64,000 bases of DNA from an uncultured Bacteroides sp. (GTDB lineage: Bacteria; Bacteroidota; Bacteroidia; Bacteroidales; Bacteroidaceae). The notes under the pieces were generated by a model. That model made no database searches. It worked only from the letters and a program-made list of their open reading frames with translations, and was not told the DNA's origin. The translations under genes were made by a program, and so were the position numbers. Positions 29,716 through 57,622 of the stretch are shown here, piece by piece. Location: contig NZ_CANRPM010000011.1 in the NCBI RefSeq assembly GCF_947632445.1, positions 1,593 through 65,592 on the forward strand, in the 5' to 3' direction. Each line of letters begins with the position of its first letter. Position 1 is the stretch's first letter.

Positions 29716-31491
29716 TTAATTGATGCAATCTATCACATCTTCAGCTTTTGCGATATTTAATATTTGGAACACACCGATGGTATTGTCCATGTGCGATGAC
29801 TGCAAAGGCTGTATATACATGTTTCTCAAATGATAACAGTCATCAAATTCTGTTTTGTCATATTTTATGGTATGACAGTCGGATGCCAAAAAGAAATTTA
29901 TCTGTTGATTTATGTCCTGTCCATCCATCCGTGCATATCCAATGAAAGGACGGGACTTCTGAATTAATGGTTCAAACAGTTCGGAAAATGATTCTGGCGT
30001 TGATAGATCAATGATAAAGGGATTGTTCTTATCCCAAGTTAGTTTTTTATAATTATTGAAGAATGACTCATCCATATATTGGGTAATGATATCGTCGAGT
30101 TCTTTAATATCATCACGGTGTTGCCATTCATCCATAATATCACTCAATATATCCTGCAGTTCGAATGTATCTACTTTGCTTTTGTCTATCAAAGTTTCGC
30201 TTTTCGACGACTCATCCCAGACCTTACCTTTCAATGCTATGTTGGCATTCTTTAATGCTATTTCGGCCGATTCTACTTGAGAGCATATTTCCTGATAGTT
30301 TTCTAACTCTCCGAATAGTTTACGAAGCCGGGTATAATCTTTATCCAGTTGTTCTTTAAGACTGGTTATATCTTTCTTTTGAGGATCGGATTGAGGCATA
30401 GTGTGTGGTTGTCTTTTGAATTTAGGCCAAAAAGACAATAGACATCCATTTTTTCTTTTCTTATTTGTATCAGAAGGGTGGGTGGTGTTCGATAACGTTT
30501 TCTGCTCGATGTATTCACGCATTGCATTATATGCTTCATCTGTTCGCAGATACTGTTCGTATCTTTCGGTTTCCTGTATCAACTCCTCGAAATGATCATT
30601 CCTCTTTTTTGTAAAAGGAACGTTAAGATAAACTTTTAATATTTCTTCGATACTTGCCCCTTGCATTTGTTCGCCATACCGTCGCAGGTTAATCACGGCT
30701 TCTTTTAATTCCTTCTGCCAGCAGTCTGGTTGTTCTTCCAAAGGCTTCTTATAGTCGTAAAGTGTATTGAAATAGTCATTGGATTTATCTTTCAAATGGC
30801 GTTGGTCGTTAAGATTACTTTCTATAGCTGTTTTCTTCAGTTTCAACTTTAGATACTCGCAAATATCCACTGCCTGATATTGTCGTTCGGCATAGCCTAC
30901 TGAGGTTATCTTATCCCTAAATGCACCTGATATCTTATAGTTGGAGTCCGCAGAACTCATTAAGCAGAATAGGCGTGAAAGCATGCGGGCTAATCGGTGG
31001 GAATTCATGTTGGTCGCCTTGTCCTCGAAATCTTGATTGTTTAGGTAAAGGATATTTGTTTGGATATGATCACTTTCCTGCATCTCCAATAATTGCTTTG
31101 CCACTGTGCATTCCGGCCTTATAGTGACATCGTCATACTTGTCTAAATCGTAAGCCAATGCTACAATAACAACTCGGATACTGGTTTGTTTCAGACCGTT
31201 GGTTCTTTCCAGTGCTTGATAAACCGTGATTATACTATCCGCATCCTCTTCAGAAAGTAACTCAGATAACATAAAAATGTTTAAGGAACTATTATTCTCG
31301 GATTTGTAGCGGTGCTGGGCAATCAAGTTTGATAAGTCGTCTTTCAATCTCGTTTGGTCAGAGAAATGGTCGGAGTCGATATTCCAACTTGATGACAGAG
31401 TTTCTCCTGCCGGATGAAACTTTTCGATTTCATCCAGCAGGGATTTAACAGATTCCTTTATTCCAAGAATAATGAAATTTGATGAAGCCAT
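29716..31491 (-). CDS. Hypothetical protein; probable inactive paralogue of the upstream tubulin-like protein
   Basis: 591 aa; co-linear strand motifs with the 919-aa protein (IDSD vs IDTD, ILYLNN vs AYIINN, TSVGYAE vs ASMGSAE) but no glycine loops. Manual alignment only. Confidence 0.6.
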   Translation of the reverse strand: MASSNFIILGIKESVKSLLDEIEKFHPAGETLSSSWNIDSDHFSDQTRLKDDLSNLIAQHRYKSENNSSLNIFMLSELLSEEDADSIITVYQALERTNGLKQTSIRVVIVALAYDLDKYDDVTIRPECTVAKQLLEMQESDHIQTNILYLNNQDFEDKATNMNSHRLARMLSRLFCLMSSADSNYKISGAFRDKITSVGYAERQYQAVDICEYLKLKLKKTAIESNLNDQRHLKDKSNDYFNTLYDYKKPLEEQPDCWQKELKEAVINLRRYGEQMQGASIEEILKVYLNVPFTKKRNDHFEELIQETERYEQYLRTDEAYNAMREYIEQKTLSNTTHPSDTNKKRKNGCLLSFWPKFKRQPHTMPQSDPQKKDITSLKEQLDKDYTRLRKLFGELENYQEICSQVESAEIALKNANIALKGKVWDESSKSETLIDKSKVDTFELQDILSDIMDEWQHRDDIKELDDIITQYMDESFFNNYKKLTWDKNNPFIIDLSTPESFSELFEPLIQKSRPFIGYARMDGQDINQQINFFLASDCHTIKYDKTEFDDCYHLRNMYIQPLQSSHMDNTIGVFQILNIAKAEDVIDCIN

Positions 31492-31510
31492 AACCCATAG
31501 ATCTTAAAAA

Positions 31511-34270
31511 TTACAATCCGTCGGCTACCAAATTGATTTCATCCATAACCAACTCTATCAAGGCTTGGTAGTGTAGTCTGTCTTCCAGGTGTCTTTTTTC
31601 TTCGTCAGGCAACTGTGAATAGTCGTTTTGATAGTTGTCGGAGTTCACTTCGTTCAATACCTCTTTTACATGTTCCAATCCTTTTCTTTTAGTTATCAAG
31701 TCTATCTCTCTCTTGACATCCTGATATAATTCCATGTTGACATAGTTTAAGTATGCCACTTCGCGTGTATCTCCAATGTCAAGACGGTAATGGTTGATGG
31801 GATTTCCTCTCTGACGAGACCTAATCCAATATTGTTGGCTTCCGTCATCGTAATGAATCAAACCGAAAATGAAGCCCTTCACCCAAAATTCTATTTTATT
31901 AGGTCCAACATCGGGCGGTGTGGGCATTAAATTAAACTTTTCACTTCTCATACGTAAGTTCCATTGTTCATCAATGTATCCGGCCAATGAGGTTTGAATG
32001 TATTCACGCTGATAGATTGTCGTGTTACCCACTGCATATATGGGAGCGCAACAACTCATAATCAGGATTAAAATTCTATTCTTTTCTTCTGTTGAAATGT
32101 AAGTAGGTTCGTGGCCGCTTTCAACAAACAAATTGGCCAATTTCGTTTCTTTAAAAATGTTTCTGTTGGCATCTGCACATCCAACCAAAATAAATTTGAC
32201 CAACGGTAGCGGCTGATTTACATACCCTTGTGTGTTTATTTTCCAAAGAGGGGATGCCATTACTTTTACCTTTTCGATGTAACTATTTGCTTTTTCAGGT
32301 GTTTGTTCGTAAACTTTCTGAAGATACTCATTGATGGTTACGGCAAAGGCTGCGCGTACTTCTTGGGTTTCGTTTGCCCAACGGCGCATTACTTCAAATA
32401 ATTCTAGATTATTCAAGCCAATCAGACTTTTTATATCTTGGTGTTTCAAAAAATCCAAAATGTCCTGTGCAGTGGCTTCACGTGTGCGATTTACTTCTTC
32501 GCCATGAATGTAGACTTGGAAATTTAAATCACGTTGTGCATCCCTTTGTATTTTCAAATTGGCAGAATCCATGTCTTTTGCAACTTGCTGGAGTGTGTTT
32601 TCAAGTGCATTTATTTTATTTTGCCACACCCCTATGCTTTGTCTTAAGTGGGCATACACTTGAATAGCATAGCTTCGGCGTATTGATTCTCGAATAGCTT
32701 CCACGTGCATACGGATTTCTTCGCTTAAGGCTTCTGCCGCATCCTTGTCTATGGGACTGAATAGTGCGGGTAATCCGCTATTTTTTATTGCATTGACCGC
32801 TTCGTTCCAAGGCTGATGATTATTCACTCTCTCGTCAAATTGTTTCTTCTCATTGTCCATTTCCTCTTCACAGGTTTGTATGGCAGTTAACAAGCTTGAC
32901 AAGAAATCGGCAATATCTCCTACGCCATTTTGTGTGTTAATGTTATTGGTAATGTATTTATCTAACTCCTTGTCAACTGTGCATATCTTGTTGTCATACG
33001 TTTTTCTAATAGTAGACTCGGTTGCAGCCTTTATGTAATTGTCAATCTGATTTTGGTCACTGTCTTTACTTAGATCAATGGGAGAGAATGGGCAAATAGG
33101 ATCCAAGAGGCTGTCTATGAGCATGTCCGCATTGTGTTCTTGTACAGCCACATTGGGGTCTGACATCCATGTCAAAGCATTTTGTAAGCCGTTATTATTT
33201 TTCTTGCAAAGTTCATCGCATGCGCTCTTTATCATGGAATATCCGATGTAATCGCCCACTGCCTGAGAATCGTATATTAGTTCTGCACTACCCATAGACG
33301 CCGTCCATGCTTTTTTATTGAGTACTTCGAAAGCTTTCATATGCTTTGCCACATTGTCCATTGGCGATGTGATACCTTGTCCCAATTGGTTGCTGGGCAA
33401 AAACATGCTTCGGCCTATCGAATCGGTTAATTCATTGATACTTTGAAAGCAGACGCCTTTTTCGTTCGTGTTATTGATGATATAGGCATATCTAATATTG
33501 GGGTCCAATGTATTAATCCTGTCGAACCCGAAATCTAAAGGATTTTGATTATCGGCCGGTAAATGGAACAGGTAGTCCAGTTCCTGTAAGAAACCGAATG
33601 CGTTGTTATGTACATTGAACGACGGTACGCCAGGAGCCATTCTGCGAAAGACGTCGGGCATCACAATCCACGGATAGATACGGTAATTAGTACCTAATGC
33701 CTGAGCCGCATTTGACACCAACATCAGGATATCAAGCATCATACCACTTCCTGTTCCACCGGCTGTACTGCCTACTACATTGATAATGGTAGGCCATTCG
33801 TTCCCATTGCTGTCATAGTCATATTGAAAACGATAATCAACAGGTAGAGGTGCGGCAATATTGCTTATCTTTTGTTGGACTTGATTTTGGATATGTTTGG
33901 CGTTGAATCGTGCGATGAATCGACCATTAGAACGTACCTGCCCTGCTCCATCAGCTGATATGGTTTTCAGCGAGTCTGTATTAACCGAGGGAATCCACGA
34001 ATACAAATTACGATTGTTTGTGTAGACTTGCAGAGCCATAGGTACGGAACAAACCAACAACTCATTATGATCTAATGCTACCTTGCCATGCTTTGCCGAA
34101 ATTATAAATTTGTTCTTCGCCTGCCCATCGGTATCAATAGCTAAGAAGCCTATCATCTTGGGGATTTCTCCATAGGTATCCAAAAAACATTGTTTGGTGC
34201 GGAGAATTGCCATTACACCGGTGCCACCTAATCCGATGTAGAGTGTCTTTGTAATTTTTGTTGTTGCCAT
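31511..34270 (-). CDS. Tubulin/FtsZ-like GTPase with long helical C-terminal extension (Tubulin_2 type)
   Basis: KTLYIGLGGTG, FLAIDTD, GAGQVRSNGR, tubulin signature VGSTAGGTGSG, NAF..L.EL; 919 aa. Confidence 0.88.
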   Translation of the reverse strand: MATTKITKTLYIGLGGTGVMAILRTKQCFLDTYGEIPKMIGFLAIDTDGQAKNKFIISAKHGKVALDHNELLVCSVPMALQVYTNNRNLYSWIPSVNTDSLKTISADGAGQVRSNGRFIARFNAKHIQNQVQQKISNIAAPLPVDYRFQYDYDSNGNEWPTIINVVGSTAGGTGSGMMLDILMLVSNAAQALGTNYRIYPWIVMPDVFRRMAPGVPSFNVHNNAFGFLQELDYLFHLPADNQNPLDFGFDRINTLDPNIRYAYIINNTNEKGVCFQSINELTDSIGRSMFLPSNQLGQGITSPMDNVAKHMKAFEVLNKKAWTASMGSAELIYDSQAVGDYIGYSMIKSACDELCKKNNNGLQNALTWMSDPNVAVQEHNADMLIDSLLDPICPFSPIDLSKDSDQNQIDNYIKAATESTIRKTYDNKICTVDKELDKYITNNINTQNGVGDIADFLSSLLTAIQTCEEEMDNEKKQFDERVNNHQPWNEAVNAIKNSGLPALFSPIDKDAAEALSEEIRMHVEAIRESIRRSYAIQVYAHLRQSIGVWQNKINALENTLQQVAKDMDSANLKIQRDAQRDLNFQVYIHGEEVNRTREATAQDILDFLKHQDIKSLIGLNNLELFEVMRRWANETQEVRAAFAVTINEYLQKVYEQTPEKANSYIEKVKVMASPLWKINTQGYVNQPLPLVKFILVGCADANRNIFKETKLANLFVESGHEPTYISTEEKNRILILIMSCCAPIYAVGNTTIYQREYIQTSLAGYIDEQWNLRMRSEKFNLMPTPPDVGPNKIEFWVKGFIFGLIHYDDGSQQYWIRSRQRGNPINHYRLDIGDTREVAYLNYVNMELYQDVKREIDLITKRKGLEHVKEVLNEVNSDNYQNDYSQLPDEEKRHLEDRLHYQALIELVMDEINLVADGL

Positions 34271-34289
34271 AATGATACGGATTAATAAT

Positions 34290-35195
34290 TTATTGTAATA
34301 GGATTGTCAATTTGTTTCCATCTCTCTGTTGAATGTTTATCCTGGTGTAGATATTTGCCGACGTAGGGGAAATTTGATAGGCGGAACTATTGTATCGAAC
34401 GATTATCTTCTTTCCATTCGCCTTGGGTATGAGCGTAATGGGGGATGTGAAATTTAGGTCGTTCTTGTAAAGTACCTTTCCAATCCAAATGCGGTTCCAG
34501 ATGGATTGCTTTTTTATATGTTGTCCTAATATTACTTTTCTGCAACCTCCCATGCGCAGTGTTGTTATTGGATTATGGGGAATAATAAGATTCTTTACTA
34601 CAGTATGACGGAATGTTGGATAGACTATTCTTCTCAAAAATACAAACCAAATGAGAATACTACAAAGAATAATGGCATATAAAATGAGTACCGTCTTTTT
34701 TAATGGATTCATCCGTTTGGTAAATGTAAACTGCCATTTGAAAATCTTTGTTTCGTTTCCGTTACTTATCTCAGTATCGTTTATTCGGTCAAGGTTATGG
34801 CTTGTGATAGTCAGATAACCACCTTTTGTTCCTTCCTTAGCTTGTGGAATGCAACGCATTTTCAATATATTTTCCGTATAGTCGCTTTTTATATCAAAGT
34901 GTGGATATTGTAATTTCATACCGTCAATATAGATTTCAAACAACTGCATATCAAGTGGCTGATCTTTTTCGTCGGTGAAATATAGGGTGGCATGACTGCT
35001 TGCCTCCTTGGCTTCCTTGTTGAATTGATATCGGATAGTTCTCTCGATAAAAGTTGTATCAGCATCTGTCCACCAAAATGAACTTGTATAGACTGACTTT
35101 CCCAATGGGGTAGATGGTACCGTTTCTTGGAAAGAACAGGAAAATACAAGACTAAGTAATAGTGCTACGCTTGTTAAACTGATGAAGTTTTTCAT
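34290..35195 (-). CDS. Lipoprotein-signal protein with an additional internal TM helix
   Basis: MKNF...LLLSLVFS-C lipobox; TM VLILYAIILCSILIWFVFL followed by RR; basic beta-rich C-terminal domain. Confidence 0.75.
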   Translation of the reverse strand: MKNFISLTSVALLLSLVFSCSFQETVPSTPLGKSVYTSSFWWTDADTTFIERTIRYQFNKEAKEASSHATLYFTDEKDQPLDMQLFEIYIDGMKLQYPHFDIKSDYTENILKMRCIPQAKEGTKGGYLTITSHNLDRINDTEISNGNETKIFKWQFTFTKRMNPLKKTVLILYAIILCSILIWFVFLRRIVYPTFRHTVVKNLIIPHNPITTLRMGGCRKVILGQHIKKQSIWNRIWIGKVLYKNDLNFTSPITLIPKANGKKIIVRYNSSAYQISPTSANIYTRINIQQRDGNKLTILLQ

Positions 35196-36238
35196 TCGAT
35201 AGATATTTTGAGAGTTCTTTCTTTTTTGTTAATGCAATGTATGGTGAGTTGTTCCGGGGTTATGAATGTGTATGGGCTTCCCCCTTCGTAATTAACCCTT
35301 AGATGAAGATCGAATTGTTCGGGAATATTCTGTGTATTCTTCAAACATAAAGAGAAGTGTATCTTTTCTTGATAGATGTCCATTGGAGCTGCCTGTAAAG
35401 TACAATATGGATTTTCTTCCAGATTTAAGTTAATCTTACCTTTAATATCCCGATAACTGCCAGACAGGGGAATGGTTAGATCCTTGTCGTCTCGCAAGTT
35501 ATAGGCTACTTGAGTCGGCATATTGCATATTTGGATAGATACATTGGCATCGGGTACTACCCAAAAGTTGGTTTGTTTGTCTATTGCTTTGCGGATATAA
35601 GGGACATCTGCAGCAGGATGTACTAAAATATAGAAACCATAAGAATATTGACCGGGATTTTGTGACTTTCGGTTCCAATCATTCAGTTCGGCCTGTAAGT
35701 CGCCAACTTCGTTGACGCCGTCGGTAAAGAGGAATAAGTAATTCACATATCCGTCCCGACACATGTCGTGATATTTGCGGATAGCATCCACAAGGTTCGT
35801 TTTATTGTCACCTACCGGTTTATAATGGAAGTTAGTAATGAAGTCTTTTAGTTGTGATTTCCCTTCAGGAGTGGCTTTTACACATACTGGGTCAAGAGTA
35901 CGCGTATAAAACGGTATGAGTATGATTTCGTTCATCGCATCATCTTCTATGTTTTCAATACTTTCTATCAACTTATATTTCAAAGATCTCCAGAGTCCAT
36001 TACCTGAAGATATAAAGGGAAGCGGGGAGTTATCCAAGTCTTTTTCTCCTTGTCTCTGGGGTAACAGTGATCCGCTTACATCCCAAAGAAAAATTCTGCG
36101 TTCGTTCAGTTGGGTATAAGCTACAGTGGGCATCAAAAAGACGAAAAAGAAGAATAACAGGATGGAGAAAGAATGTGATGTGTTGAAACATTCTCTTTCT
36201 TGAGATCCTTTAAGATGATGATATACGCGGTTTGTCAT
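35192..36238 (-). CDS. Exported von Willebrand factor A domain protein
   Basis: Hydrophobic signal; MIDAS elements IFLWDVSGS, KTN, LFLFTDG; beta-rich C-terminal domain; stop overlaps next start. Confidence 0.85.
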   Translation of the reverse strand: MTNRVYHHLKGSQERECFNTSHSFSILLFFFFVFLMPTVAYTQLNERRIFLWDVSGSLLPQRQGEKDLDNSPLPFISSGNGLWRSLKYKLIESIENIEDDAMNEIILIPFYTRTLDPVCVKATPEGKSQLKDFITNFHYKPVGDNKTNLVDAIRKYHDMCRDGYVNYLFLFTDGVNEVGDLQAELNDWNRKSQNPGQYSYGFYILVHPAADVPYIRKAIDKQTNFWVVPDANVSIQICNMPTQVAYNLRDDKDLTIPLSGSYRDIKGKINLNLEENPYCTLQAAPMDIYQEKIHFSLCLKNTQNIPEQFDLHLRVNYEGGSPYTFITPEQLTIHCINKKERTLKISIE

Positions 36239-36312
36239 GGCATCATTTATATGTCAATCAGCAGACTCCCCACACTGAATTATGTTATGGAATATTTCAG
36301 GTTGCCATATAC

Positions 36313-36530
36313 AAAAAAGCGCGGGAATCTGTACTTGTTACTCGTCCCACGTATCAAGGCCTTCGCATTGCCCACTCAGTCAAAACGAGCAACGCAGAAG
36401 CCCACGCAGATATGTATAACAACTTCCTGCACATCTTCTATAAAGTACAGGAAGGGTATAAACATATCCCGCAGACATCTACTGTTGCTTTGTTTTAGAC
36501 TGAGTTCAAAGTTTGCGAAGTTTTGATACG
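36313..36530 (-). ncRNA. Structured 5' leader (long nested hairpin with poly-U tail) upstream of the vWA/tubulin operon
   Basis: Nested IRs: CGTATCAA..CTTCGCA / TTGCGAAG..TTGATACG; ACTCAGTC..AAAAC.AGCAAC / GTTGCT..GTTTTAGACTGAGT; GATATGT / ACATATC; CTTCCTG / CAGGAAG; tail TCCCGCGCTTTTTTGTAT on minus strand. Confidence 0.6.
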
Positions 36531-36575
36531 TCAAAAACAAAACGTAAAGTAAACGTCTTTTTTATATATGTTTGT

Positions 36576-48553: not shown

Positions 48554-50074
48554 TCATTTTGGCACACTCCCATCATCCGACGCTTTCACCCAGTACCCGT
48601 TGCCGTACCGCGTATGCACCCTTCTTCCCATCTGCGCCAGCAGGTGACTGAACGCCGTGCACGAACAGCCCCTTAACGCTGCCGGGTTCTTCTTCTTCAA
48701 GGCGGCGTAGATGTCTGCCGCAGACATCAGATGCGCACCCTCCTCACTTGCTTCGGCAAACTCGAAGCAGCTGCCAATGAGTTCCTCGGCGGGCTTCACG
48801 CGGTAGAACGGACGGTTCGCCGCCTGGATTTCCGCCTCCTCCGCCTTGCTGAACCAGCAGCGTCCGCCGTTATTCAGCTCGTGCAGGAGCTGGGCGTACA
48901 GTTGGGCATGGTCGAGGGGAGTCGTACAGTCGATGGCCCGCTCCACTTCCACACAGATAAAACGTCGGCTGCCCGACAGGTCGGTCAGCAGGTCACGGCG
49001 GTTGCTCGTGCCGATGAACGAGGCGATTCTTGGCAAAGCCTCCGCCGAACGGCGGTAGGCACGGCGCACGCGCAGGTCTTCCATCTGCATCAGGTTCTTC
49101 AGCTGCGGCAGGCGGGAGGCAGGCAGGCGGTCGAACTCGTCGAGGTTGATCAAACCGTAGGACGCCAACTTGTTTTCCGCCGATGAGGCGTTGGTCAGGT
49201 CGAAGCTCTCGGTGAAATAGTCGCGCAACTCTTGGGGGAGCAGCATCCGGCAGAAGGTGGACTTGCCCAATCCCTGCGTGGTGCTGATGAGGAGCGGGGC
49301 CACACTGTTGGCACGACGGCCCCGGTCGCCCGTGCCTGTCCACTGGGCGGTGACGGCCAGCATCCAGCGGTGGAAGGAACGTATCCAAACCCCGTTGCCG
49401 GAGACCCGCTTTGCCAGGTCTTCCACCCGGTCCTTGCCGTCCCATTCAGGCAGGTGCTTGAAGTACAGGTCGAACGGATGGTAAGCCCTTACGTGGTCGG
49501 ATTCCACGTATCGCTTCACGTCCCTGTCCCAGCAATCCACTCCGTCCTCCATAGCACCGAGGGCGATGCCGTTCAGGACACGGCTATCCACGGGCGTATA
49601 AAGAAGGCGGTGCGAATCGTCCGCAGCCTCCGTGTCGAGGCGGGCGCACTCCGTGCGCTCCGTCAGCAGGTTGTAGCGGAAGGCGTAGTGCAGCTTCAGG
49701 TAGCGGGTCAGGCGCTGCATGATCCGGCGTTGCCTGGAGTCCTTCCGGTCGACGGCCTCTTCAGCTTGCTCCTTGTCTTTGTCTTTCAACGTATCCGTCT
49801 CCGGTTCGGCCTCTTCCTGCTCTATCCATTCCGTCACCTCGTTCCGCCCGTTCAGGCTGAAGATGCGCTTGTCGGGGCGGGGTGTCTGGGGCGTCCAGGT
49901 CAGTTGGACGGTGAACTCGCCGTCGCCCGTGACGAGGAAGACTTCGCCGCCCGGCAGGCGGCCGCAGTATTCGTTGAGGTTCGACAGAAGTTCCCTGTAG
50001 GAGTTGGCGGGAGCCGGCAGGGGCGCTTCCCGGCGGGAAGTGAACAGATCTCTTAGCTGGTAAATCAGGTTCAT
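48554..50074 (-). CDS. VirE/VapE-like P-loop ATPase with winged-helix-like C-terminus
   Basis: YAFRYNLLT, YHPF..YF..LP.WDG.DR, RWML, Walker A QGLGKSTFC, Walker B LINLDEFD, RRAY, SFIGTSN, TDLSGSRRF. Confidence 0.88.
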   Translation of the reverse strand: MNLIYQLRDLFTSRREAPLPAPANSYRELLSNLNEYCGRLPGGEVFLVTGDGEFTVQLTWTPQTPRPDKRIFSLNGRNEVTEWIEQEEAEPETDTLKDKDKEQAEEAVDRKDSRQRRIMQRLTRYLKLHYAFRYNLLTERTECARLDTEAADDSHRLLYTPVDSRVLNGIALGAMEDGVDCWDRDVKRYVESDHVRAYHPFDLYFKHLPEWDGKDRVEDLAKRVSGNGVWIRSFHRWMLAVTAQWTGTGDRGRRANSVAPLLISTTQGLGKSTFCRMLLPQELRDYFTESFDLTNASSAENKLASYGLINLDEFDRLPASRLPQLKNLMQMEDLRVRRAYRRSAEALPRIASFIGTSNRRDLLTDLSGSRRFICVEVERAIDCTTPLDHAQLYAQLLHELNNGGRCWFSKAEEAEIQAANRPFYRVKPAEELIGSCFEFAEASEEGAHLMSAADIYAALKKKNPAALRGCSCTAFSHLLAQMGRRVHTRYGNGYWVKASDDGSVPK

Positions 50075-50564
50075 AAGCGGATGCGGTTGGTTCTTATTTT
50101 TTCCTGTAAAGATACAACATTTTAAGGCCTTTGTCAAGTCCTCCGGCTGCGTCCGGGGCTGCCTTTAGCGTCTTTTATATCTTTCACCGGAAACAGGGGA
50201 TGTGCCCCGGTGAAGTTTCACCGGAACGGGCTGACTGTAAGCGGGTTGCGGTGAAAGCAGGAAACAAGCCGTTCGGGGCATCGCACACAAATGTTCTGCG
50301 GTATTCCCATTCTCCGTGAAAGAACTTTCACGCCTTCACCCCATCTTTCACACTATCTCGCTCGTTGACAGGCGTTTGCCGGCCCGTGAAACCGTGAAGG
50401 CGGAAAACGGGAAACTTTTTTTCTTGCCGCCTTGCCCGCCTTGCCCGCCTGCTTCAGCGGAATCATGTGATGCGGAAGGTCGTATTTTCTGAAGGGAAAC
50501 ATAGAGTTCCGGGCAAAAGCGGGACAGTTTCGGGAGGGAACCGGGCCGCCTTTTTCCGGGTTCC

Positions 50565-50665
50565 CATGCAGTGCTTCATGAGAAGGTAACGAAGCACTTC
50601 GTCAGGGTGCCATGCAATGCTTTGTCCGAGTGTCAGGAAGTGCTTTGTCGGCAGGCATGAAAGCA
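50565..50665. repeat. Degenerate ~23-bp periodic array upstream of virE
   Basis: Cores agtgcttc (50570), agcacttc (50593), aatgcttt (50616), agtgcttt (50639). Confidence 0.55.
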
Positions 50666-50985
50666 CGTCGTTGGCGTGCGCCTGCCGGCTTCTTCACGGA
50701 CAGAACATGGTGAAATATTGTTAGTTTGATGCGTAATGTTGACAGCTACAGAAGTTTGCCATTTCAAAATGGCTACGACATTGTTTTAACAGGAGCTTAT
50801 CCCGGACTCACATTAAATAATATTTCGATAAAATATGATAGCGTTTACTTTGATATATCAAAAGATGTGCATATTTTTGTGCATAATTGTGAATTGTGTA
50901 ACAAACAAAACACTGTAAATAATTTTAAAGAGGAAAAAGAAAGAGATATTGACATATTAAAATAAGGCGTTAGCATTTATTCTGT

Positions 50986-51135
50986 GATTCTGAAACTTCG
51001 ACACTTTCAAAAAATCACTCTACGGAATAAAGTTGATGCTCACGTGTTATACACGTGGGCTTTATTCCATATATTGAGTGATAGGTAGTCGAAGACCTCA
51101 GAATCAGTATCGGAAATAGTCCACGTTTTTTGTAT
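50986..51135 (+). ncRNA. Structured 5' leader upstream of the type III R-M operon
   Basis: Nested IRs GATTCTGA..CTTCGAC / GTCGAAG..TCAGAATC; ATCACTC / GAGTGAT; GGAATAAAG / CTTTATTCC; CTCACGTGT-TAT-ACACGTGGG; tail GTCCACGTTTTTTGTAT. Confidence 0.6.
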
Positions 51136-51179
51136 CTGTACTTATCGGGATAAATGCTATCGCGCAATAAATCCCGACC

Positions 51180-53783
51180 ATGAACACTAATCCATTCCAA
51201 ATTCTTACGCCGCAGGAGCGATGGCGACCGGAAAACGCCGACAGTGCCACAGCCCCACTTGTAGAGAAAATCCGTGTGGCGGTTGCCGAATGGCGCAAAG
51301 CGGGTTATCCGCACACGAGCGAAACATCGTTGGCATTGCTTCGCTTTTGGTTCGACACGCCGCATCCCGATAATTTCCGATTCTTTTTCTCGCAGCGGGA
51401 AGCCATTGAGAGCATCATCTATCTTTACGAGGCTGCCGAAGCCCGCGACAAATACCAACTGATTGCACAATTCGATTCGAGCGGCGAACTTACGCCCGAT
51501 GCCTTTGATGAGAACTGGACGCGGTATGTAGTGAAAATGGCGACGGGTGCGGGAAAGACGAAAGTCGCCGCGTTGGTTATCGTATGGTCTTATTTCCATA
51601 AGTTGTACGAACCCGACAGCATCCTGTCAAAAAATTTCCTGTTTATCGCTCCGAATATCATTGTCTTTAATCGGCTGCTCAAAGATTTCGAGGGTCTGCG
51701 AATGTTCTTTGACGAACCGTTCCTGCCCGACGATGACTATTGCGACCGCTATTGGCGTAGCGATTTTCAGCCGACACTTCATTTGCAGGACGATGTTCAT
51801 GGCATATCCGAATCGGGCAACATATTTCTAACGAATATACACCGCGTCTATGTGTCAGACCCTGCAAGGTTGTCGGTCGAGGAAACCTTTTTAGGCATCA
51901 AGCCAAAACCCGACGCAGATACCGCCAGCGGAATAGATTTGGGCAAGTTGCTCCGCAGCGGTCAGATAAAGGATTTAGTTGTCGTGAATGATGAGGCGCA
52001 CCACATCCACGATGAGGACTTGCAATGGCACAAGTGTATCAGCGACATACACAACCGCCTCAAATTGAGATACGGCAACGGGCTTTCTTTGCAGGCGGAT
52101 TTCACGGCAACCCCGAAACATGCCAATGGCGCAATCTTCGTGCAGACGATATGCGACTATCCGCTGGTCGAGGCTATTCGGCAGCAGGTTGTCAAGTCAC
52201 CGACCCTGCCCGATGAGGCTTCACGCCTGAAATTGGAGACACAGGATAGTGTCGAATTTGTGGAGCGTTATCGCAGTTTTATCGAGCTGGGTGTGGTGGA
52301 GTGGAAAAAGCAATACGACGCCCTCAACGGCGTAAAGAAACCCGTGCTGTTCATAATGACGACCAACACAAGGGAGGCGGATGCCGTAGCCGATTTCCTG
52401 CAACGCGAATATACTTTCCTCAACAATGCCGTACTGACGATTCACACCAACAAGAACGGCGATGTGGTCGATTCGGGCAAAAGGGATAAAGAGGAATTGA
52501 TGATGCTCCGCACGGCTGCCGATGAGATAGACAGGGACACTTCACGATACAAGGTCATCGTTTCGGTGTTGATGCTCCGCGAGGGCTGGGATGTGCGGAA
52601 TGTTACGACGATTGTCGGTTTGCGACCGTTCAAGGCGAAATCGAATATCCTGCCCGAACAGACCATAGGGCGCGGTCTGCGCAAGATGTTCGACCTCAAC
52701 ACGCCCGAAGAATTGGTGGTTATCGGCACACGGGAGTTTTTGGAGTTTGTAGAAACACTCAAAGATGAGGGTGTAGAGTTTGAATATGCACCTATGGGCG
52801 CAGATACACAGGTAAAGGGTAATATCAGCGTGTCGATCGATAAAGATAAAGATGCCGATGCACTCGATATTCGGATTCCGCAGATGCGCCCAAAGATAAT
52901 CCGTGAACAAAAGAACCTCGCAGAGTTGAACGTCGCAGATTTTGAGAGCGAACAGGCTCCGTTTAGGCACTATTCCGACGATGAGATAAAAGAGATTGTA
53001 TATCGAGATATAGAGGGCAAAATCACGCATACGACAATTTTCAGCCATAGCCATACTCCCGACTATCGCAATGTACTGACGGCTATTACGCATTCGATTC
53101 TGCGCGAAGCCCGCCTGCTGAACGGACACCATATTCTCTATCCGAAAGTCGAAAGTTTCATTAAGTATCGGCTATGGGGCAGGGAGGTCGTTTTGTCTGA
53201 TCCGCAGACGCTCCGCAATCTGTCTGAGGCAACGGCTATCCGCATTGTTTACGAAACATTCAAAAAGGCTATCTCCCGTCTCACTATCGTAGAACGTACA
53301 GATATGACAAATCGCGGCTATGCCTCTGTTGCAAAGAGCCGTCCGATTGTCGTCAAGCACCAACCCTATATAGCCGCGCCAAAAAAATCGCTCTTTGACA
53401 AGGTTATCGGGGACAGCGAATACGAATTGCAGTTTGCGGCGGCAATGGAAAAATGGGGAGATGTGGTAGCCTATGCAAAGAATACGGAAACAGGTGTGGG
53501 TTTCAGCATCGAATATCAGAACTCGGAGGGGCGGATAGCTGCCTACTACACCGATTTTTTAGTCCGATGCAGCAACGGTCGATGCTATGCCGTCGAACTG
53601 AAAGGCGTTGAGGATGAAGATGTCCGATTGAAGCGGGAACGGTTGCGACAATGGTGTGTAGATGTAAATAGGGTACAAGAGCAGCAATGGTCGTCGCTCT
53701 ATATTCTGCAAAAAGAATGGGATAAGTACCGCGACAAACTGCGGACTTTTGCCGATGTCGTAGAACTGTTTGAAGTAAAATAA
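51180..53783 (+). CDS. res: Type III restriction endonuclease Res subunit
   Basis: KMATGAGKT, NDEAHH, TATP, MLREGWD, QTIGRGLR, C-terminal PD-(D/E)xK YYTDFLV...VELKG. Confidence 0.9.
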   Translation: MNTNPFQILTPQERWRPENADSATAPLVEKIRVAVAEWRKAGYPHTSETSLALLRFWFDTPHPDNFRFFFSQREAIESIIYLYEAAEARDKYQLIAQFDSSGELTPDAFDENWTRYVVKMATGAGKTKVAALVIVWSYFHKLYEPDSILSKNFLFIAPNIIVFNRLLKDFEGLRMFFDEPFLPDDDYCDRYWRSDFQPTLHLQDDVHGISESGNIFLTNIHRVYVSDPARLSVEETFLGIKPKPDADTASGIDLGKLLRSGQIKDLVVVNDEAHHIHDEDLQWHKCISDIHNRLKLRYGNGLSLQADFTATPKHANGAIFVQTICDYPLVEAIRQQVVKSPTLPDEASRLKLETQDSVEFVERYRSFIELGVVEWKKQYDALNGVKKPVLFIMTTNTREADAVADFLQREYTFLNNAVLTIHTNKNGDVVDSGKRDKEELMMLRTAADEIDRDTSRYKVIVSVLMLREGWDVRNVTTIVGLRPFKAKSNILPEQTIGRGLRKMFDLNTPEELVVIGTREFLEFVETLKDEGVEFEYAPMGADTQVKGNISVSIDKDKDADALDIRIPQMRPKIIREQKNLAELNVADFESEQAPFRHYSDDEIKEIVYRDIEGKITHTTIFSHSHTPDYRNVLTAITHSILREARLLNGHHILYPKVESFIKYRLWGREVVLSDPQTLRNLSEATAIRIVYETFKKAISRLTIVERTDMTNRGYASVAKSRPIVVKHQPYIAAPKKSLFDKVIGDSEYELQFAAAMEKWGDVVAYAKNTETGVGFSIEYQNSEGRIAAYYTDFLVRCSNGRCYAVELKGVEDEDVRLKRERLRQWCVDVNRVQEQQWSSLYILQKEWDKYRDKLRTFADVVELFEVK

Positions 53784-53812
53784 TTTATGTAAGATTAAAC
53801 GATTATACCATT

Positions 53813-55861
53813 ATGGCTGATATTAGAAAAAACGAGATGATAGAACTTATCCGACAGGGTAAGAAGTTGGACAAGTCGATGATATACGACCTTTTTGCGG
53901 GGGACGATGAGGAAGTGTTCCTGTTTTGGAATGGACGCAACGAGCAGGTGACGAATGTTGCGCTGCCGTTTCACAGCATCGAACAAATCGACGAACCGCG
54001 AGCCGAACACAATGCGGAACTTGCGATATTCGATACCCGGGGACGCCAACTCAAAGGCTGGACGAACAAACTGATATGGGGCGACAACAAATTGGTCGTC
54101 TCCTCGTTGCTGAACGGTCCGATGCGCCGTGCGATAGAGGCTGTCGGCGGAATGAAACTGGTTTATATCGACCCGCCGTTTGCCGTCGGATCGGACTTCG
54201 GCTTCGATATTGCCATAGGCAATGACAGCGTAACCAAGAAACAGAGCGTTATCGAAGAAATTGCCTATCGGGACACGTGGGGACGGGGTATTTCCTCTTA
54301 CTTGTCAATGATGTACGAGCGCTTGCGCCTGATTCACGACTTGTTAGCAGATGACGGCTCAATCTATGTGCATTGTGACTGGCGGGTTTCAAGTGTTTTG
54401 CGGTTAATGTTGGATGATGTCTTCGGAAAAGGTAATTTTAGAAATGAAATAGTATGGTGCTACACAGGCCCTCAAAGGTCAAGAAATTGTTTCCCTAAAA
54501 AGCACGATTCTATACTATTTTACTCAAAATCCATAGAATCAATATTTAATCCTCAACGGGTTAAGCATAAATCGGGACTCCATGGAGTCGGAGGATTCGG
54601 ATTTAAGGGTTCAGATACAGCAAATACAGTACTGAAGGAATTAGAAGAGAAAGGGAAATTATTAGAAGATTGGTGGCCTGATATTTCAACAGTTGGTCGT
54701 CTAATAAATGAATTTGAGGGTTATCCAACACAAAAACCTGAAGCCCTGTTAGAGCGCATTATCAAGGCATCGAGCAACGAGGGCGATTTGGTCGGCGATT
54801 TCTTTTGCGGAAGCGGCACAACTGCTGCCGTCGCCGAAAAACTCAACCGCAAATGGATTGCTTGCGACTTGGGACGTTTTGCCATACATACTACTCGCAA
54901 ACGACTTATCGGCGTACAGCGCGAACGCTGCAAGGCGGGTCAGGACTATCGCGCATTCGAGGTGCTGAACCTCGGCAAATACGAACGGCAGTTCTTTATG
55001 GATGATATGTGTAGGTCTATTGGAAATATCCGTAATGAAGAGCAATATATCAATCTGATTCTCGAAGCCTACAAGGCGAAACGCATCGACAACACACCCC
55101 TGTTGCATGGCGTGAAGGGCGACCGCTTCGTGCATATCGGTGCGTTGGATATGCCCGTAACGCAAACCCGCCTTGACGACCTGTTCGAGGAATGCCGCAA
55201 GCAAATGGTGACGGCGGTCGATGTGCTCGGCTTCGAGTTCGAAATGGGACTTACCCCGCAATATATCCAGAAATTAAAGGAGCAGGGTGTCGATTTCAGG
55301 CTGAAATATATCCCGCGCGATGTGTTCGACCGTCGGGCCGTAGAACGGAACCAGGTGCATTTTTACGATGTCGCCTATCTCAATGCACAATGCAAGGTCG
55401 TCGGTCGCCGGCTGACCGTAAGCCTGTCGGATTTCGTTTCCAACTACACGCAGGACGATTTGGACGACGTCGAGGTCAAGGCAGGGAAGTCGCGTATCGT
55501 TATCGACGGCGGCATGATTATCAAAAAAGAAGTCAGCAAAGAGGGCATCTTGAGCGAACAGATATTGACGGAGAATTGGCACGACTGGGTCGATTACTGG
55601 GCTATCGACTACAACTACGAGGACAAGCGCGAAATTATCTGCACTACGGACAAGGAGACGGGCGAGGTACATGAGAAGTGGACGGGCAACTACATCTTTG
55701 AGAACGAATGGCAGAGTTTCCGCACGAAGCAGTCGCCGACGCTCGAACTGACCGCTCCGTCGCACCAGTACGACCGTCCGGGCCGTTATAAAATCATGGT
55801 GAAAGTCGTGGATATTCTCGGCATTGATACCAGCAAAGTGATAGAAATCGTAATACCGTAA
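53813..55861 (+). CDS. mod: Type III modification methyltransferase (beta class) with long C-terminal extension
   Basis: LIWGDN, VYIDPPF, GSIYVHCD, YPTQKPEALLERII, DFFCGSGTT. Confidence 0.92.
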   Translation: MADIRKNEMIELIRQGKKLDKSMIYDLFAGDDEEVFLFWNGRNEQVTNVALPFHSIEQIDEPRAEHNAELAIFDTRGRQLKGWTNKLIWGDNKLVVSSLLNGPMRRAIEAVGGMKLVYIDPPFAVGSDFGFDIAIGNDSVTKKQSVIEEIAYRDTWGRGISSYLSMMYERLRLIHDLLADDGSIYVHCDWRVSSVLRLMLDDVFGKGNFRNEIVWCYTGPQRSRNCFPKKHDSILFYSKSIESIFNPQRVKHKSGLHGVGGFGFKGSDTANTVLKELEEKGKLLEDWWPDISTVGRLINEFEGYPTQKPEALLERIIKASSNEGDLVGDFFCGSGTTAAVAEKLNRKWIACDLGRFAIHTTRKRLIGVQRERCKAGQDYRAFEVLNLGKYERQFFMDDMCRSIGNIRNEEQYINLILEAYKAKRIDNTPLLHGVKGDRFVHIGALDMPVTQTRLDDLFEECRKQMVTAVDVLGFEFEMGLTPQYIQKLKEQGVDFRLKYIPRDVFDRRAVERNQVHFYDVAYLNAQCKVVGRRLTVSLSDFVSNYTQDDLDDVEVKAGKSRIVIDGGMIIKKEVSKEGILSEQILTENWHDWVDYWAIDYNYEDKREIICTTDKETGEVHEKWTGNYIFENEWQSFRTKQSPTLELTAPSHQYDRPGRYKIMVKVVDILGIDTSKVIEIVIP

Positions 55862-55998: not shown

Positions 55999-56280
55999 AT
56001 GATAAGAAATGCCTGGACAGATGAGGAAATGATTTCAACTAATGGGATTTGTCTTTCTCCTTTGTATGACAAAGCCTTTGATAAGGGTTATATTGGCATA
56101 CGGCCGGATGATTATACGGTAATAATATCAAAAGAGTTGAAAAATTATAAAAAACACCTTTCTTATCAAAATTGCTTTGCGCCAATTGAAGATAAGCCAA
56201 TTATGCTTCCAAACAAACATAACCCCAACCCTGAATTTTTAGCATATCATATTGAGCACATATTTGTAAAACATAATTAG
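55999..56280 (+). pseudogene. HNH endonuclease with large in-frame internal deletion
   Basis: N-terminal MIRNAWTDEE fused directly to the C-terminal NGICLSPLYDKAFDKGYI...LPNKHNPNPEFLAYHIEHIF; TATATTTG promoter retained. Confidence 0.7.
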
Positions 56281-56440
56281 TTAATAATCATTTGCGCCAA
56301 ATAAGGGTTGTTGCGATGATAAGTTGTTATTAGCGATGCAGATAAACAATGGTCTTGTCAAGATTGTTGAGAAGGCAGAAGATAGGGTTATGTTATACCA
56401 TAATTGATTCTTAATTTAATTAGTCGCAATGGAGTAGCGT

Positions 56441-57622
56441 ATGAATGAAGATAGAAAAACAATAACCGATTTTGACGAGTATATCCGCCAGGGAGAGCCG
56501 GAGAAAAGGGAAAAGGCGTATATCTGGCAGACTGCCATAGGTCTGCAGGCTGTTGATGGGCTTACGACTTCTGATTACCTCAATGAAACAGCCAAAAGGC
56601 ACATTGAGGGAGAAATCGACATTGATGAAGTTCGTGAACTCATAAAGACTTATTACCGGTCAAAGTCCAACCGGGAGCCTGATGATGATGAGAAACGAGA
56701 GGCTGACGGGGTATCAGCGAATATATCCAAAATCCTGTCAAATCGTACACTGGATTTCAGTACCCAGGGATACATTGCGCTACATCGCCGAATCTTTGCC
56801 GGCATATTCAAGCATGCAGGCAGAGTTCGTGACTACAATATCACGAAAAAAGAGTGGGTGCTGGAGAATGAAACGGTAAACTATCTGAATTGGGAGGATT
56901 TGCGCAGGGCATTGGACTATGACATTGAACAGGAGCGCAATTTCAGCTATAAAGGCATTACCGCCGATGCCATGATTTCCCACATTACCCGTTTCGTATC
57001 GGGTCTTTGGCAGATTCATGCGTTTGGGGAAGGAAATACCCGCACGACGGCGGTATTCACGATTCAGTATCTCCGCTCCATTGGATTCGACATCACCAAC
57101 GATATGTTTGCAAAACACTCGTGGTACTTTCGAAATGCACTGGTGCGCGCAAACTACAAGAACGCTTTGAAAGGCATAGACTATACTCCTATTTATTTGG
57201 AGCGATTCTTCCGCAATCTGCTGTTGGGTGAAAAATGGGATTTGCGCAATCGTTATCTGCATATAAACCCGACGGAAGAATGGAAAGTTCAACCGAATCT
57301 TGCTGACAGGACAAGTGCAGGACAAGCGCAGGACAAGTGCGCGGCAATTGATGATACACTGCAGGACAAGCTGCATACAAACAACCCGAATATTGAAAAA
57401 TTGGTGCGAATGCTTGGTGAACAGCAAATGTCTGTAAAACAGATAATGGAAGCACTTGGATTGAAAGGGCGCGATAACTTCCTTAATCTCTACTTGAAGC
57501 CATCCATATCTAAAGGCTATGTACGTTTGCTGTACCCTGACTCACCGCGCCATTCACGCCAGAAATATCTTCTGACAGTCAAAGGGCTGGCACTTTATCT
57601 GGAAATAATTGGCAAACAATAA
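56441..57622 (+). CDS. Fic-family protein with VbhA-like N-terminal antitoxin domain and C-terminal HTH
   Basis: WQTAIGLQAVDGL N-domain; Fic motif HAFGEGNTRT; C-terminal LGLKGRDNF...P.SPRHSRQKY. Confidence 0.9.
   Translation: MNEDRKTITDFDEYIRQGEPEKREKAYIWQTAIGLQAVDGLTTSDYLNETAKRHIEGEIDIDEVRELIKTYYRSKSNREPDDDEKREADGVSANISKILSNRTLDFSTQGYIALHRRIFAGIFKHAGRVRDYNITKKEWVLENETVNYLNWEDLRRALDYDIEQERNFSYKGITADAMISHITRFVSGLWQIHAFGEGNTRTTAVFTIQYLRSIGFDITNDMFAKHSWYFRNALVRANYKNALKGIDYTPIYLERFFRNLLLGEKWDLRNRYLHINPTEEWKVQPNLADRTSAGQAQDKCAAIDDTLQDKLHTNNPNIEKLVRMLGEQQMSVKQIMEALGLKGRDNFLNLYLKPSISKGYVRLLYPDSPRHSRQKYLLTVKGLALYLEIIGKQ
57307..57339 (+). repeat. Three tandem 11-bp units CAGGACAAG(T/C)G inside the Fic gene
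   Basis: Units at 57307, 57318, 57329; a fourth copy at 57362. Confidence 0.85.

Follow-up and report, generated by a model that had tools for sequence, protein, structure and literature searches.

The leader of a type III restriction-modification operon belongs to a family of structured RNAs

What is the long, structured leader that precedes a type III restriction-modification (R-M) operon in Bacteroides, and how might it act on the genes behind it? The operon, res and mod, lies in a 64,000-nucleotide (nt) stretch of DNA from an uncultured Bacteroides sp. (contig NZ_CANRPM010000011.1, positions 1,593 to 65,592), which we refer to as the window and whose positions are used throughout. An earlier note on this DNA had suggested that the leader of res and mod (el1; 50960-51135, plus strand) shares an RNA architecture with a second leader (el2; 36563-36313, minus strand), and that the element could gate toxic cargo after transfer. 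We found that el1 and el2 are members of a large family of leader RNAs in Bacteroidota, the conserved sequences of which can pair in two mutually exclusive ways. The reading we favor, and hold to be somewhat better than an even bet, is that the leader is a cis-acting two-state terminator/antiterminator transcription attenuator with its own Bacteroides-type promoter.

The motifs that had been reported for el1 were all found at their positions. The helices had been counted as four; they are indeed nested, and number five (P1-P5). The parts of el1 in this fold, together with its cargo, are as follows.

50985-50993 / 51098-51106, plus strand: nested helix P1
50996-51002 / 51088-51094, plus strand: nested helix P2
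51014-51020 / 51076-51082, plus strand: nested helix P3
~51022-51031 / 51060-51069, plus strand: nested helix P4
51038-51047 / 51051-51060, plus strand: nested helix P5
50985-51020, plus strand: span of the 5´ arms of P1, P2 and P3, from fold and covariation
51076-51106, plus strand: span of the 3´ arms of P3, P2 and P1
51054-51060, plus strand: CGTGGGC, read from the sequence
51119-51125, plus strand: GTCCACG, read from the sequence
51126-51131, plus strand: T6, read from the sequence
51132-51135, plus strand: GTAT, read from the sequence
51180-55861, plus strand: type III R-M cargo, res 51180-53783 and mod 53813-55861 (Pfam ResIII and N6_N4_Mtase; PADLOC REase_III and MTase_III)

The long hairpin of el1 has a minimum free energy of -56.5 kcal/mol (z -5.1), and none of 200 shuffled sequences folded equally well. 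Conservation of this fold was assessed with an alignment, A2, of 51 short-type members; a covariance model, R1, was built from 51 members other than el1 together with el1, el2 being excluded. RNAalifold predicted 30 pairs for A2, with compensatory double changes at 22 of them. Paired cells made up 94% of the alignment, compared to 71% after shuffling and 35-47% when partners were slid against each other, and the covariation score was 0.656 versus 0.225 (shuffled) and at most 0.14 (slid partners). A brute-force search for additional covarying column pairs was swamped by G-U noise; partner-swap tests, in which the pairing of each arm with its own partner is compared with its pairing to partners taken from other members, were used instead. 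These gave z scores of -26.7 for P1, -23.8 for P3, -15.7 for P2 and -7 to -11 for P4. P5 is conserved in sequence, with changes confined to the 5´ strand, all of them compatible with wobble pairing, and with a U·G pair in 43 of the 51 members. Because such wobble pairs are strand-specific, the element appears to act as an RNA of the sense strand. The conserved blocks (the 5´ box, GAAA, AGGU/ACCUC and P5) are embedded in helices that otherwise covary. The mean energy of the long hairpin across the family is -62.9 kcal/mol (-58.0 kcal/mol for el1, 50960-51131). Collectively, the alignment data argue that the long hairpin P1-P5 is under strong selection, and they uphold the earlier suggestion that conserved structure with sequence turnover marks an RNA family.

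Members of the family are widespread, as a search with the covariance model, one of the checks the note had proposed, made clear. A pattern scan with one genome per species gave at least 119 loci, nearly all in Bacteroidota, and a metagenome scan gave at least 120, again almost all in Bacteroidota. R1 confirmed the family with 89 matches in 100 sources and 39 further matches in 47 sources, the latter including 22 of 24 new loci on viral contigs. A first scan of viral contigs with the shared motifs had led to a plain homologue of el2 upstream of a C5 DNA methyltransferase gene (L009). The carriers in the genome scan belong to Prevotellaceae, Bacteroidaceae, Paludibacteraceae, Rikenellaceae, Tannerellaceae, Muribaculaceae, Lentimicrobiaceae, Flavobacteriales and Ferruginibacter, with one Ignavibacteria metagenome-assembled genome; further copies were present in gut, rumen, termite and environmental metagenomes and on phage contigs. 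Cultured carriers include Paraprevotella clara YIT 11840 (NZ_JH376583.1, element at L023 6143-6311), Phocaeicola oris 14-104 and Leyella stercorea. Three matches outside Bacteroidota (L015 and L033, both within open reading frames (ORFs), and L088) were rejected by R1 and are attributed to chance. Another scan of viral contigs, unbiased and based on the Pb motif (see below), returned two known members and three chance matches within ORFs, and nothing else. Two loci with homologues of Res (L014, Res 91% identical, and L013, 73%) have leaders of the el1 type in which every helix carries compensatory substitutions.

The genome and viral sets had been chosen with patterns that include CGTGGGCTT and the tail, such that conservation of these parts in those sets is partly by construction. 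For this reason, the metagenomic sample was drawn independently, by the 5´ box and GCTCACG only; of its at least 120 loci, 118 were usable among the matches listed. Figures given for the independent sample below refer to this set.

The window and 17 member loci were also compared with Rfam 15. The window had no match at gathering thresholds, nothing relevant to either leader appeared with E values up to 10, and the 17 member loci gave tRNA and 5S matches only. In three of these 17 loci, tRNA genes lie a few hundred bases to ~3 kb from the member (L075 4591-4662, L094 2368-2441, L052 265-435); this proximity may reflect accessory islands inserted beside tRNA genes. We found no description of the leader family in the literature.

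The two leaders of the window are homologous

The proposal that el1 and el2 share an element was confirmed by R1, which found el2, a sequence absent from its training set, with 48.8 bits (E 1.6e-7) across 36563-36313 on the minus strand; el1, a member of the training set, scored 139 bits. A direct alignment of the two leaders was uninformative, the helices having turned over, and the homology is seen via the covariance model alone. The R1 scan of the 64-kb window found no third copy. Both leaders have an apical stem whose 3´ side could alternatively pair with the tail directly before the T-run. The following features were assigned to el2.

36313-36563, minus strand: el2, long type with a 63-nt insertion in the P5 loop, by match to R1
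36631-36624, minus strand: -7 box TACATTTG, from sequence
36585-36562, minus strand: upstream ORF ATG TAT GGA AAC AAA CAT ATA TAA, eight codons (ATG, six sense codons and stop)
36406-36400, minus strand: box X, CGTGGGC
36325-36319, minus strand: tail, CCCGCGC
36318-36313, minus strand: T6
36262-36271, minus strand: region 5, GGGGAGTCTG, predicted partner of CAGATTCCC (36331-36323) in the 5´ part of the tail, in a helix that places the U-run in a loop

The element at 36313-36530 folds to -94.7 kcal/mol (z -7.6) on the minus strand. The opposite strand reaches only -76.5 kcal/mol, indicating that many el2 pairs are G-U pairs on the gene-sense strand. The duplex of the tail and region 5 has a predicted energy of -15.5 kcal/mol, which none of 200 shuffled sequences equaled. 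Two diverged copies per genome are not confined to the window and were also seen in a genome of Leyella stercorea (H07659).

The conserved blocks can pair in a second way, with a terminator-like 3´ half

The conserved blocks that are unpaired in the long hairpin (state A) are complementary to one another: GAAA and UUUC flank the 5´ arm of P2 and can form a local hairpin, Pa, and AGGU and ACCU flank the 3´ arm and can form another, Pb. With Pa and Pb at their apices, the two halves of the element can each fold as a complete hairpin (state B). In the 5´ half-hairpin, H5, the partners are the 5´ box and the 5´ strands of P4 and P5; in the 3´ half-hairpin, H3, they are box X and the tail. The parts of el1 that exchange partners are the following.

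50966-50980, plus strand: 5´ box GGCGTTAGCATTTAT (family consensus AAAGCGUUAGCUUU), conserved columns of A2; region 1, the closing stem of H5
50991-50995 / 51005-51009, plus strand: local hairpin Pa, UGAAA / UUUCA, with a P2 arm within its loop
51022-51047, plus strand: region 2, made up of the P4 (GGAATAAAG) and P5 (GCTCACGTGT) 5´ strands, partner of region 1 or region 3
51053-51071, plus strand: region 3 (box X), ACGTGGGCTTTATTCCATA, which includes CGTGGGC, partner of region 2 (P4/P5) or the tail
51083-51086 / 51095-51098, plus strand: local hairpin Pb, AGGU / ACCU, apex of the 3´ half-hairpin
51108-51131, plus strand: region 4, tail TATCGGAAATAGTCCACG and T6, which forms H3 with region 3 and is terminator-like

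H5 has a mean energy of -19.9 kcal/mol in the family and of -22.4 kcal/mol (z -3.3) in el1 (50960-51049). H3 has a family mean of -26.5 kcal/mol; in el1, 51050-51135 folded alone gave -26.9 kcal/mol (z -4.5) with a stem that stops at the U-run. The consensus stem at the base of H3, NCGUGGG:(Y)CCRCGY, directly adjoins a run of five to eight Us, and the flanking N:Y pair covaries (A-U 18, G-C 43, G-U 20, A·C 0, other non-pairs 5). Partner-swap tests supported the pairings of state B, with z scores of -9.9 for box X with the tail, -6.2 for P4b with the 5´ part of the tail, -5.4 for the 5´ box with region 2 and -4.3 for P1a with P3a. The local hairpins Pa and Pb scored -3.1 and -2.4.

The independent sample is informative for box X. 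Among the matches listed, the sequence was CGTGGG in 117 of 118 copies and CGTGAG in the remaining one. CGTGAG would match GCTCACG perfectly and is yet nearly absent; the wobble G must therefore owe its conservation to another pairing, with the tail C. The tails in this sample were TCCCACG (56), GTCCACG (19), GCCTGCG (10), TTCCACG (8) and similar others, all of them compatible with CGUGGG. A T-run of at least five followed in 112 of the 118 copies among the matches listed. The core, the complementary tail and the T-run, which had been singled out as kept between el1 and el2, are thus features of the family. The further letters of the shared T6GTAT are coincidental; the T-run was mostly followed by ATAT, ATTT or ATGT, and by GTAT in 8 of 110 independent copies among the matches listed.

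A G+C-rich hairpin followed by a U-tract therefore stands upstream of the ORF, and the 5´ strand of this hairpin, box X, can be hidden by an exclusive alternative pairing with P4a/P5a. Terminators in Bacteroidota have been described as a near-canonical hairpin with a U-tract (PMC13613805).

The element lies between a promoter motif and an ORF

On the sense strand, the element occupies the position of a 5´ leader between a promoter motif and the first ORF. Most members have a TAnnTTTG box 57-117 nt upstream of the 5´ box; in the metagenomic sample, 85 of 110 copies among the matches listed have one within 125 nt. The first ORF begins at a median distance of 53 nt beyond the T-run (independent sample, among the matches listed), and its orientation is strictly that of the element. 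The corresponding features of el1 are given here.

50872-50879, plus strand: putative -7 promoter box TATTTTTG (Bacteroides-type, consensus TAnnTTTG), by motif match
50913-50922, plus strand: CTGTAAATAA, degenerate equivalent of the mini-upstream ORF of the family (GCCUAUG, 0-2 codons, stop), with no AUG
51145-51177, plus strand: pre-start region, containing ATAAATGCTATCGC (51150-51163), which is complementary to the 5´ box (50967-50980) at 13 of 14 positions

The putative transcription start of el1, as placed by the motif, would be ~6-10 nt 3´ of the -7 box, and the ATG of res, at 51180, is 48 nt beyond the T-run.

In about half of the members (e.g. L027, L050 and L072), (U)UGCCUAUG is found ~35 nt beyond the start of the -7 box, and its AUG opens a mini-ORF. 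In genome members, a stop codon followed within two codons in 27 of 35 cases, while the two remaining frames gave 6 of 34 and 10 of 35; in the independent sample, among the matches listed, the figures were 40 of 44 versus 2 of 41 and 10 of 42. The mini-ORF has one to three codons, encodes peptides such as M, MK, MA, MI and MxK, and shows insertions and deletions in threes; as read from these patterns, it is clearly under frame constraint. The CTGTAAATAA of el1 was matched by eye against members such as ...GCCTATGTAAATAAG, and a role as an upstream ORF is doubtful in el1, where the start codon is missing. We also considered pairing between the P5 loop and the GCCUAUG motif, and rejected it as, by eye, variants of the motif were unmatched by changes in the loop.

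Two kinds of helix reach past the U-run. In one, (A)GUCC(C) from the 5´ part of the tail is complementary to a segment 15-45 nt farther on, half of 86 members individually reaching p≤0.05. The compensatory pairs include AAGUCC/GGACUU, GUUCC/GGAAC and CAGAUUCCC/GGGGAGUCUG; this helix is strong in el2 and weak in el1. The second helix joins the 5´ box to the pre-start region (50967-50980 with 51150-51163 in el1) and carries compensatory changes in L014 and L013. In its strong form, 17-30 nt before the start codon, it was seen only in leaders of type III R-M genes and a few others (L062, in front of a gene for a SNF2/ResIII protein, L065 and L047). As a family-wide feature it was rejected (z 0.17), being specific to the R-M lineage, and this restriction fits the idea of the earlier note that the leader could gate toxic cargo. 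The full el1 leader has a predicted fold of -76.9 kcal/mol (z -7.4) in which the long-range helix forms and the region of the start codon stays open. A competing local hairpin, TCGGGAT (51145-51151) with ATCCCGA (51171-51177), stops 2 nt short of the res ATG and would cover positions -9 to -3.

The downstream genes are accessory and mostly of no known family

Tabulating the downstream genes, another of the proposed checks, gave a picture in which defense is a minority. The 77 first ORFs in genomes comprised BspA-type leucine-rich repeat (LRR) proteins (7), ResIII (4, of which 3 were fetched deliberately), acyltransferases (2), type IX secretion system cargo (2) and Dcm (1), with single cases of other families, and most had no Pfam match. 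Among the 90 first ORFs in the matches listed for the independent sample, there were five BspA LRR proteins, five PD-(D/E)XK nucleases, three Fib_succ_major proteins and single cases of others; 57 of these 90 had N-termini resembling signal peptides or those of lipoproteins. Viral copies were found upstream of genes for lipoproteins, large unknown proteins and methyltransferase-like proteins. Most first ORFs are small ORFans of the signal-peptide or lipoprotein type. The family serves accessory genes generally, above all ORFans of the cell surface, and defense genes are a visible minority. Gating as such, as suggested by the earlier note, fits the anatomy of the leader; a link to toxic cargo, defense or conjugation is weak, with few R-M genes in the family, and neither leader in the window adjoins conjugation genes. 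Single-stranded DNA promoters of the Frpo/ssi type, hairpins that rebuild a double-stranded promoter, belong to the leading regions of conjugative elements; many members of the present family are chromosomal or phage-borne. The cargo does not form the coherent regulon expected for a riboswitch with a conserved ligand pocket, as it is heterogeneous and mostly lacks Pfam matches.

A model for a two-state transcription attenuator

Family membership, both sets of pairings, the strand and the placement between promoter motif and ORF are established by the results above. From these, we infer how the leader would be transcribed, end at the U-run and switch, in which direction and upon what signal. 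The four regions of the model are the 5´ box (region 1), the P4 and P5 5´ strands (region 2), box X NCGUGGGCUUUAC, which supplies the 3´ strands of P5 and P4 (region 3), and the tail ...GUCC(C)RCGY with U5-8 (region 4). State B would arise from local pairing during RNA synthesis, with 1:2 closing H5 and 3:4 closing H3, and H3 would then act as an intrinsic terminator that keeps the downstream gene off. State A, the predicted thermodynamic ground state, would form when both halves zip into P1-P5; box X would be locked in P4/P5 (the 2:3 antiterminator), the tail would be free and the polymerase would read through. In the read-through RNA, the tail could then pair with region 5 and, in R-M leaders, the freed 5´ box could pair with the pre-start region.

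Since H5 can form before the 3´ half exists, the outcome is probably kinetic. The switch would turn on the fate of H5, which either lasts or has been opened or displaced by the time the tail is synthesized, as set by some input, and weakening of the H5 stretch GGCGTTAGC would be expected to give read-through. Candidate inputs are an RNA-binding protein or small RNA on the 5´ box or P5, how fast the polymerase moves, and a ribosome on the mini-ORF, the presence of which suggests a link to translation.

Several observations weigh against this model. State A is ~16 kcal/mol more stable than H5 and H3 together, and the CACG of P5 stays free in H5 as a toehold or nucleation site; for these reasons, the antiterminator may always win and the putative terminator may rarely form. 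The interior of the terminator, 55-79 nt, is unusual for an intrinsic terminator, and the pairing of P3b with P1b in H3 was without partner-specific support (partner-swap z -0.4). Bias-free evidence on the conservation of CGTGGGCTT and the tail is limited to the sample drawn by the 5´ box and GCTCACG, L013 and L067. The mini-ORF ends 21-85 nt before the 5´ box, at which distance a terminating ribosome cannot cover region 1, and el1 has CTG-TAA at the equivalent site in place of a mini-ORF with an AUG. The downstream genes share no obvious function, and thus no signal can be guessed from them. Finally, the public RNA runs that match the el2 region cover pyrF only, the el1 region was matched by DNA runs only, and no RNA run matched the copy in Paraprevotella clara (L023).

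A bolder extension, which we put forward tentatively and consider doubtful on balance, is that promoter, start-stop mini-ORF and two-state hairpin make up a phylum-wide portable kinetic switch that gates acquired or fast-evolving genes by one global cue and is without a described counterpart in other phyla. The cue might be the status of ribosomes or translation at the mini-ORF, or a dedicated RNA-binding factor, with surface proteins, lipoproteins and R-M systems as the cargo. If true, the accessory genome would have a common gate.

Bacteroidota dominate the gut, and to our knowledge little is known about how their strain-variable surface, lipoprotein and defense genes are controlled. One leader RNA ahead of unrelated variable genes, absent from Rfam, would offer a new handle on this regulation. 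It could serve as a marker for accessory cassettes or as a compact two-state RNA part for engineering Bacteroides, and a long hairpin in competition with two half-hairpins is a test case for co-transcriptional folding. For R-M systems, it would be a route to timing the expression of the restriction enzyme other than by a C protein.

Other explanations for the family

We weighed the attenuator against other explanations, beginning with two in which an RNA is made and does something else. A stand-alone, trans-acting structured small RNA (sRNA) of ~230-260 nt, ending at the U-run and serving as a protein sponge or scaffold or acting by base pairing, would account for the separate promoter motif and the terminator-like 3´ end, for several diverged copies per genome (two each in the window and in L. 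stercorea) and for conserved blocks inside covarying helices, a pattern that binding sites for proteins or RNAs typically show. RRM proteins bind multicopy sRNA families in Bacteroides (PMC11697453). The downstream gene would then be a mere neighbor or be reached by leaky read-through. Strict co-orientation with the ORF and its tight spacing (median 53 nt from the U-run) speak against this, as do the covarying tail/downstream helix and the 5´ box/pre-start helix of the R-M lineage, both of which are possible only in a read-through RNA. We also noticed no separate promoter motif between the U-run and the ORF, although no systematic search was made. We regard such an sRNA as improbable, and give the same low standing to a post-transcriptional element of the 5´ untranslated region (UTR) that controls stability or processing (e.g. 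as an RNase III site or by 5´ protection) or translation, with a U-run that does not terminate. In favor of such an element, the ground-state hairpin is very stable, the tail/downstream helix puts the U-run in a loop, and the full el1 fold exposes a start region that the alternative local hairpin would cover; a post-transcriptional role is possible especially for the R-M lineage. The sole leader-based control known in Bacteroides conjugative elements, that of tetQ, is translational (PMC3809561). What a UTR element leaves unexplained is selection on the pairing of box X with the tail next to the U-run (wobble G in 117 of 118 copies, covariation of the N:Y pair, partner-swap z -9.9) and the T-run kept in 112 of 118.

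The remaining two explanations place the function, if any, in the DNA. A recombination site or cassette junction folding as single-stranded DNA, as integron attC sites do, or a portable stretch of homology for gene swapping, would explain why the element always stands at the 5´ edge of variable accessory genes, why copies occur on viral contigs, why R-M alleles have been swapped behind an identical leader and why, in L067, a cassette lies within a split element with its junction at box X. Recombination at a repeated leader is, however, expected anyway from sequence identity. Against such a site, the G·U pairs kept in the family are specific to one strand, the antisense fold is much weaker, the orientation relative to promoter motif and ORF is fixed, and recombination would have no use for the U-run, the alternative pairings or the mini-ORF. 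We saw neither arrays nor an integrase beside either copy in the window; the two copies in 64 kb lie 15 kb apart on opposite strands, unlike attC sites, although attC boxes were not the subject of a formal search. Taken together, these points make a DNA site highly improbable. Least credible of all is a selfish palindromic repeat (miniature inverted-repeat transposable element, Correia or ERIC-like) spread by transposition with no part in regulation. The element is an imperfect palindrome of ~170 bp with many copies across many genomes, as such a repeat would be, yet its copies differ nearly everywhere outside the boxes. Because these differences are compensatory, they point to long-term selection on pairing rather than recent copying. 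The position in front of ORFs is constant, and no conserved terminal inverted repeats or target duplications were noticed.

Known classes of structured RNA were considered as well. Retron RNAs, bridge or omega RNAs and group II intron fragments, which the long hairpin had brought to mind, were rejected given that the downstream proteins are not reverse transcriptases, recombinases or nucleases of the kinds that go with such RNAs. FopS/GibS sRNAs, also a multicopy Bacteroides RNA family with canonical promoters, differ from the element in size and architecture: FopS RNAs are 65-70 nt long, consist of a single-stranded seed and a simple terminator, and act in trans on susC mRNAs (PMC11697453).

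Comparison with known leaders

Leaders of the terminator/antiterminator kind are already known; the family itself is without an entry in Rfam 15. The predicted switch resembles most closely the four-region attenuators of trp and his operons, which likewise are promoter-proximal leaders with exclusive 1:2, 2:3 and 3:4 pairings, in which 3:4 directly precedes a U-run and 2:3 is the antiterminator; a short upstream ORF is present there and in many members of the family. Unlike in those attenuators, the halves here are complete hairpins that would zip into one hairpin of 60 kcal/mol, i.e. a mobile four-way junction. Here, too, the ORF has only one to three codons, contains no regulatory codons and is often missing, el1 included, and its distance from region 1 differs from leader-peptide attenuation, where a ribosome on the leader ORF covers region 1 or 2. 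The cargo consists of unrelated accessory genes rather than a biosynthetic operon. A comparison with the Bacteroid-trp leader (RF01692) gave only 22.7 bits, under the 49-bit threshold, and at a site outside the element.

Riboswitches, T-boxes and ANTAR, LicT-RAT and PyrR leaders are similar in having a structured domain whose 3´ strand doubles as part of an intrinsic terminator, and the conserved blocks in covarying helices could, as in such antitermination leaders, bind a trans-acting factor. They differ in that nothing in the present family's regulon points to a ligand, and there is no Rfam 15 match. The blocks left unpaired in one state serve as stems in the other and may therefore be explained without a ligand.

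Two systems from Bacteroidetes were compared by description only. The leader of tetQ-rteA-rteB in CTnDOT also belongs to accessory, mobile Bacteroides DNA and has a tiny ORF before alternative hairpins. The tetQ leader peptide has about three codons. The operon is transcribed constitutively and is controlled by translational attenuation via this very short leader ORF (PMC3809561), whereas the feature conserved here is a hairpin with a U-run before the gene. The catalogue of Fremin & Bhatt 2021 lists HMP2_4078, a 109-bp palindromic motif of Bacteroidetes near D5_N primase and integrase genes (PMC8040213). It resembles the family as a Bacteroidetes-specific palindrome beside phage or primase genes; el1 adjoins a gene for a VapE/D5-like primase, and L014 a D5_N gene. 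Unnamed motifs of the catalogue such as HMP2_4078 may overlap the family; the catalogue gives no mechanism, family description or name. The unusual traits of the present family are its symmetric two-half design, the start-stop-like mini-ORF, its breadth across the phylum and phages, and its unrelated accessory cargo.

Genomic setting of the two leaders and of related loci

The islands of el1 and el2 are both flanked by housekeeping genes. That of el1 spans ~10 kb and holds the type III R-M genes, the gene for the VapE-like primase, an HNH fragment and a Fic protein. An exact-protein look-up of Res gave no record. Between the VapE-like primase gene (48554-50137, minus strand) and the promoter box of el1 lies an A+T-rich stretch of ~0.7 kb (50138-50870) with no convincing ORF. 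On the other side, at 55999-57622, the match of a 93-amino-acid (aa) ORF to HNH restriction endonucleases is confined to their C-terminal part, which makes the ORF a likely gene fragment, and the Fic-domain protein beside it matches the PADLOC candidate PDC-S72.

A contig of the same species (L010) has a leader and flanks 97-100% identical to those in the window, and the A+T-rich stretch is 92-97% identical. In this contig, identity drops to 58-81% in the interior of res (within 51470-53650), and mod has had its target-recognition part (54456-54755) replaced. With an identical leader and different res and mod interiors, R-M alleles or specificities are evidently exchanged behind a constant leader.

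Behind el2 is a four-gene operon (29716-36238, minus strand) for which no PADLOC or NCBIfam match was found. Its products have, in order, 348, 301, 919 and 591 aa, and the third of them starts with a Tubulin_2 domain (PF13809). The operon is inserted after pyrF in at least 20 contigs with an identical 348-aa protein, and the layout was the same in the 8 listed.

Locus L067 (1275-2041) has a complete element at 1275-1457; next comes a 131-aa ORF, and after it a 3´ half on its own, from box X to the T-run (1960-2041). The P1 and P2 arms of this solitary half match the 5´ half of the first element. The locus therefore holds one element split at GGCGTGGGCTTTTGACTTATC (box X), with a gene and that gene's own copy of the terminator half lodged in between.

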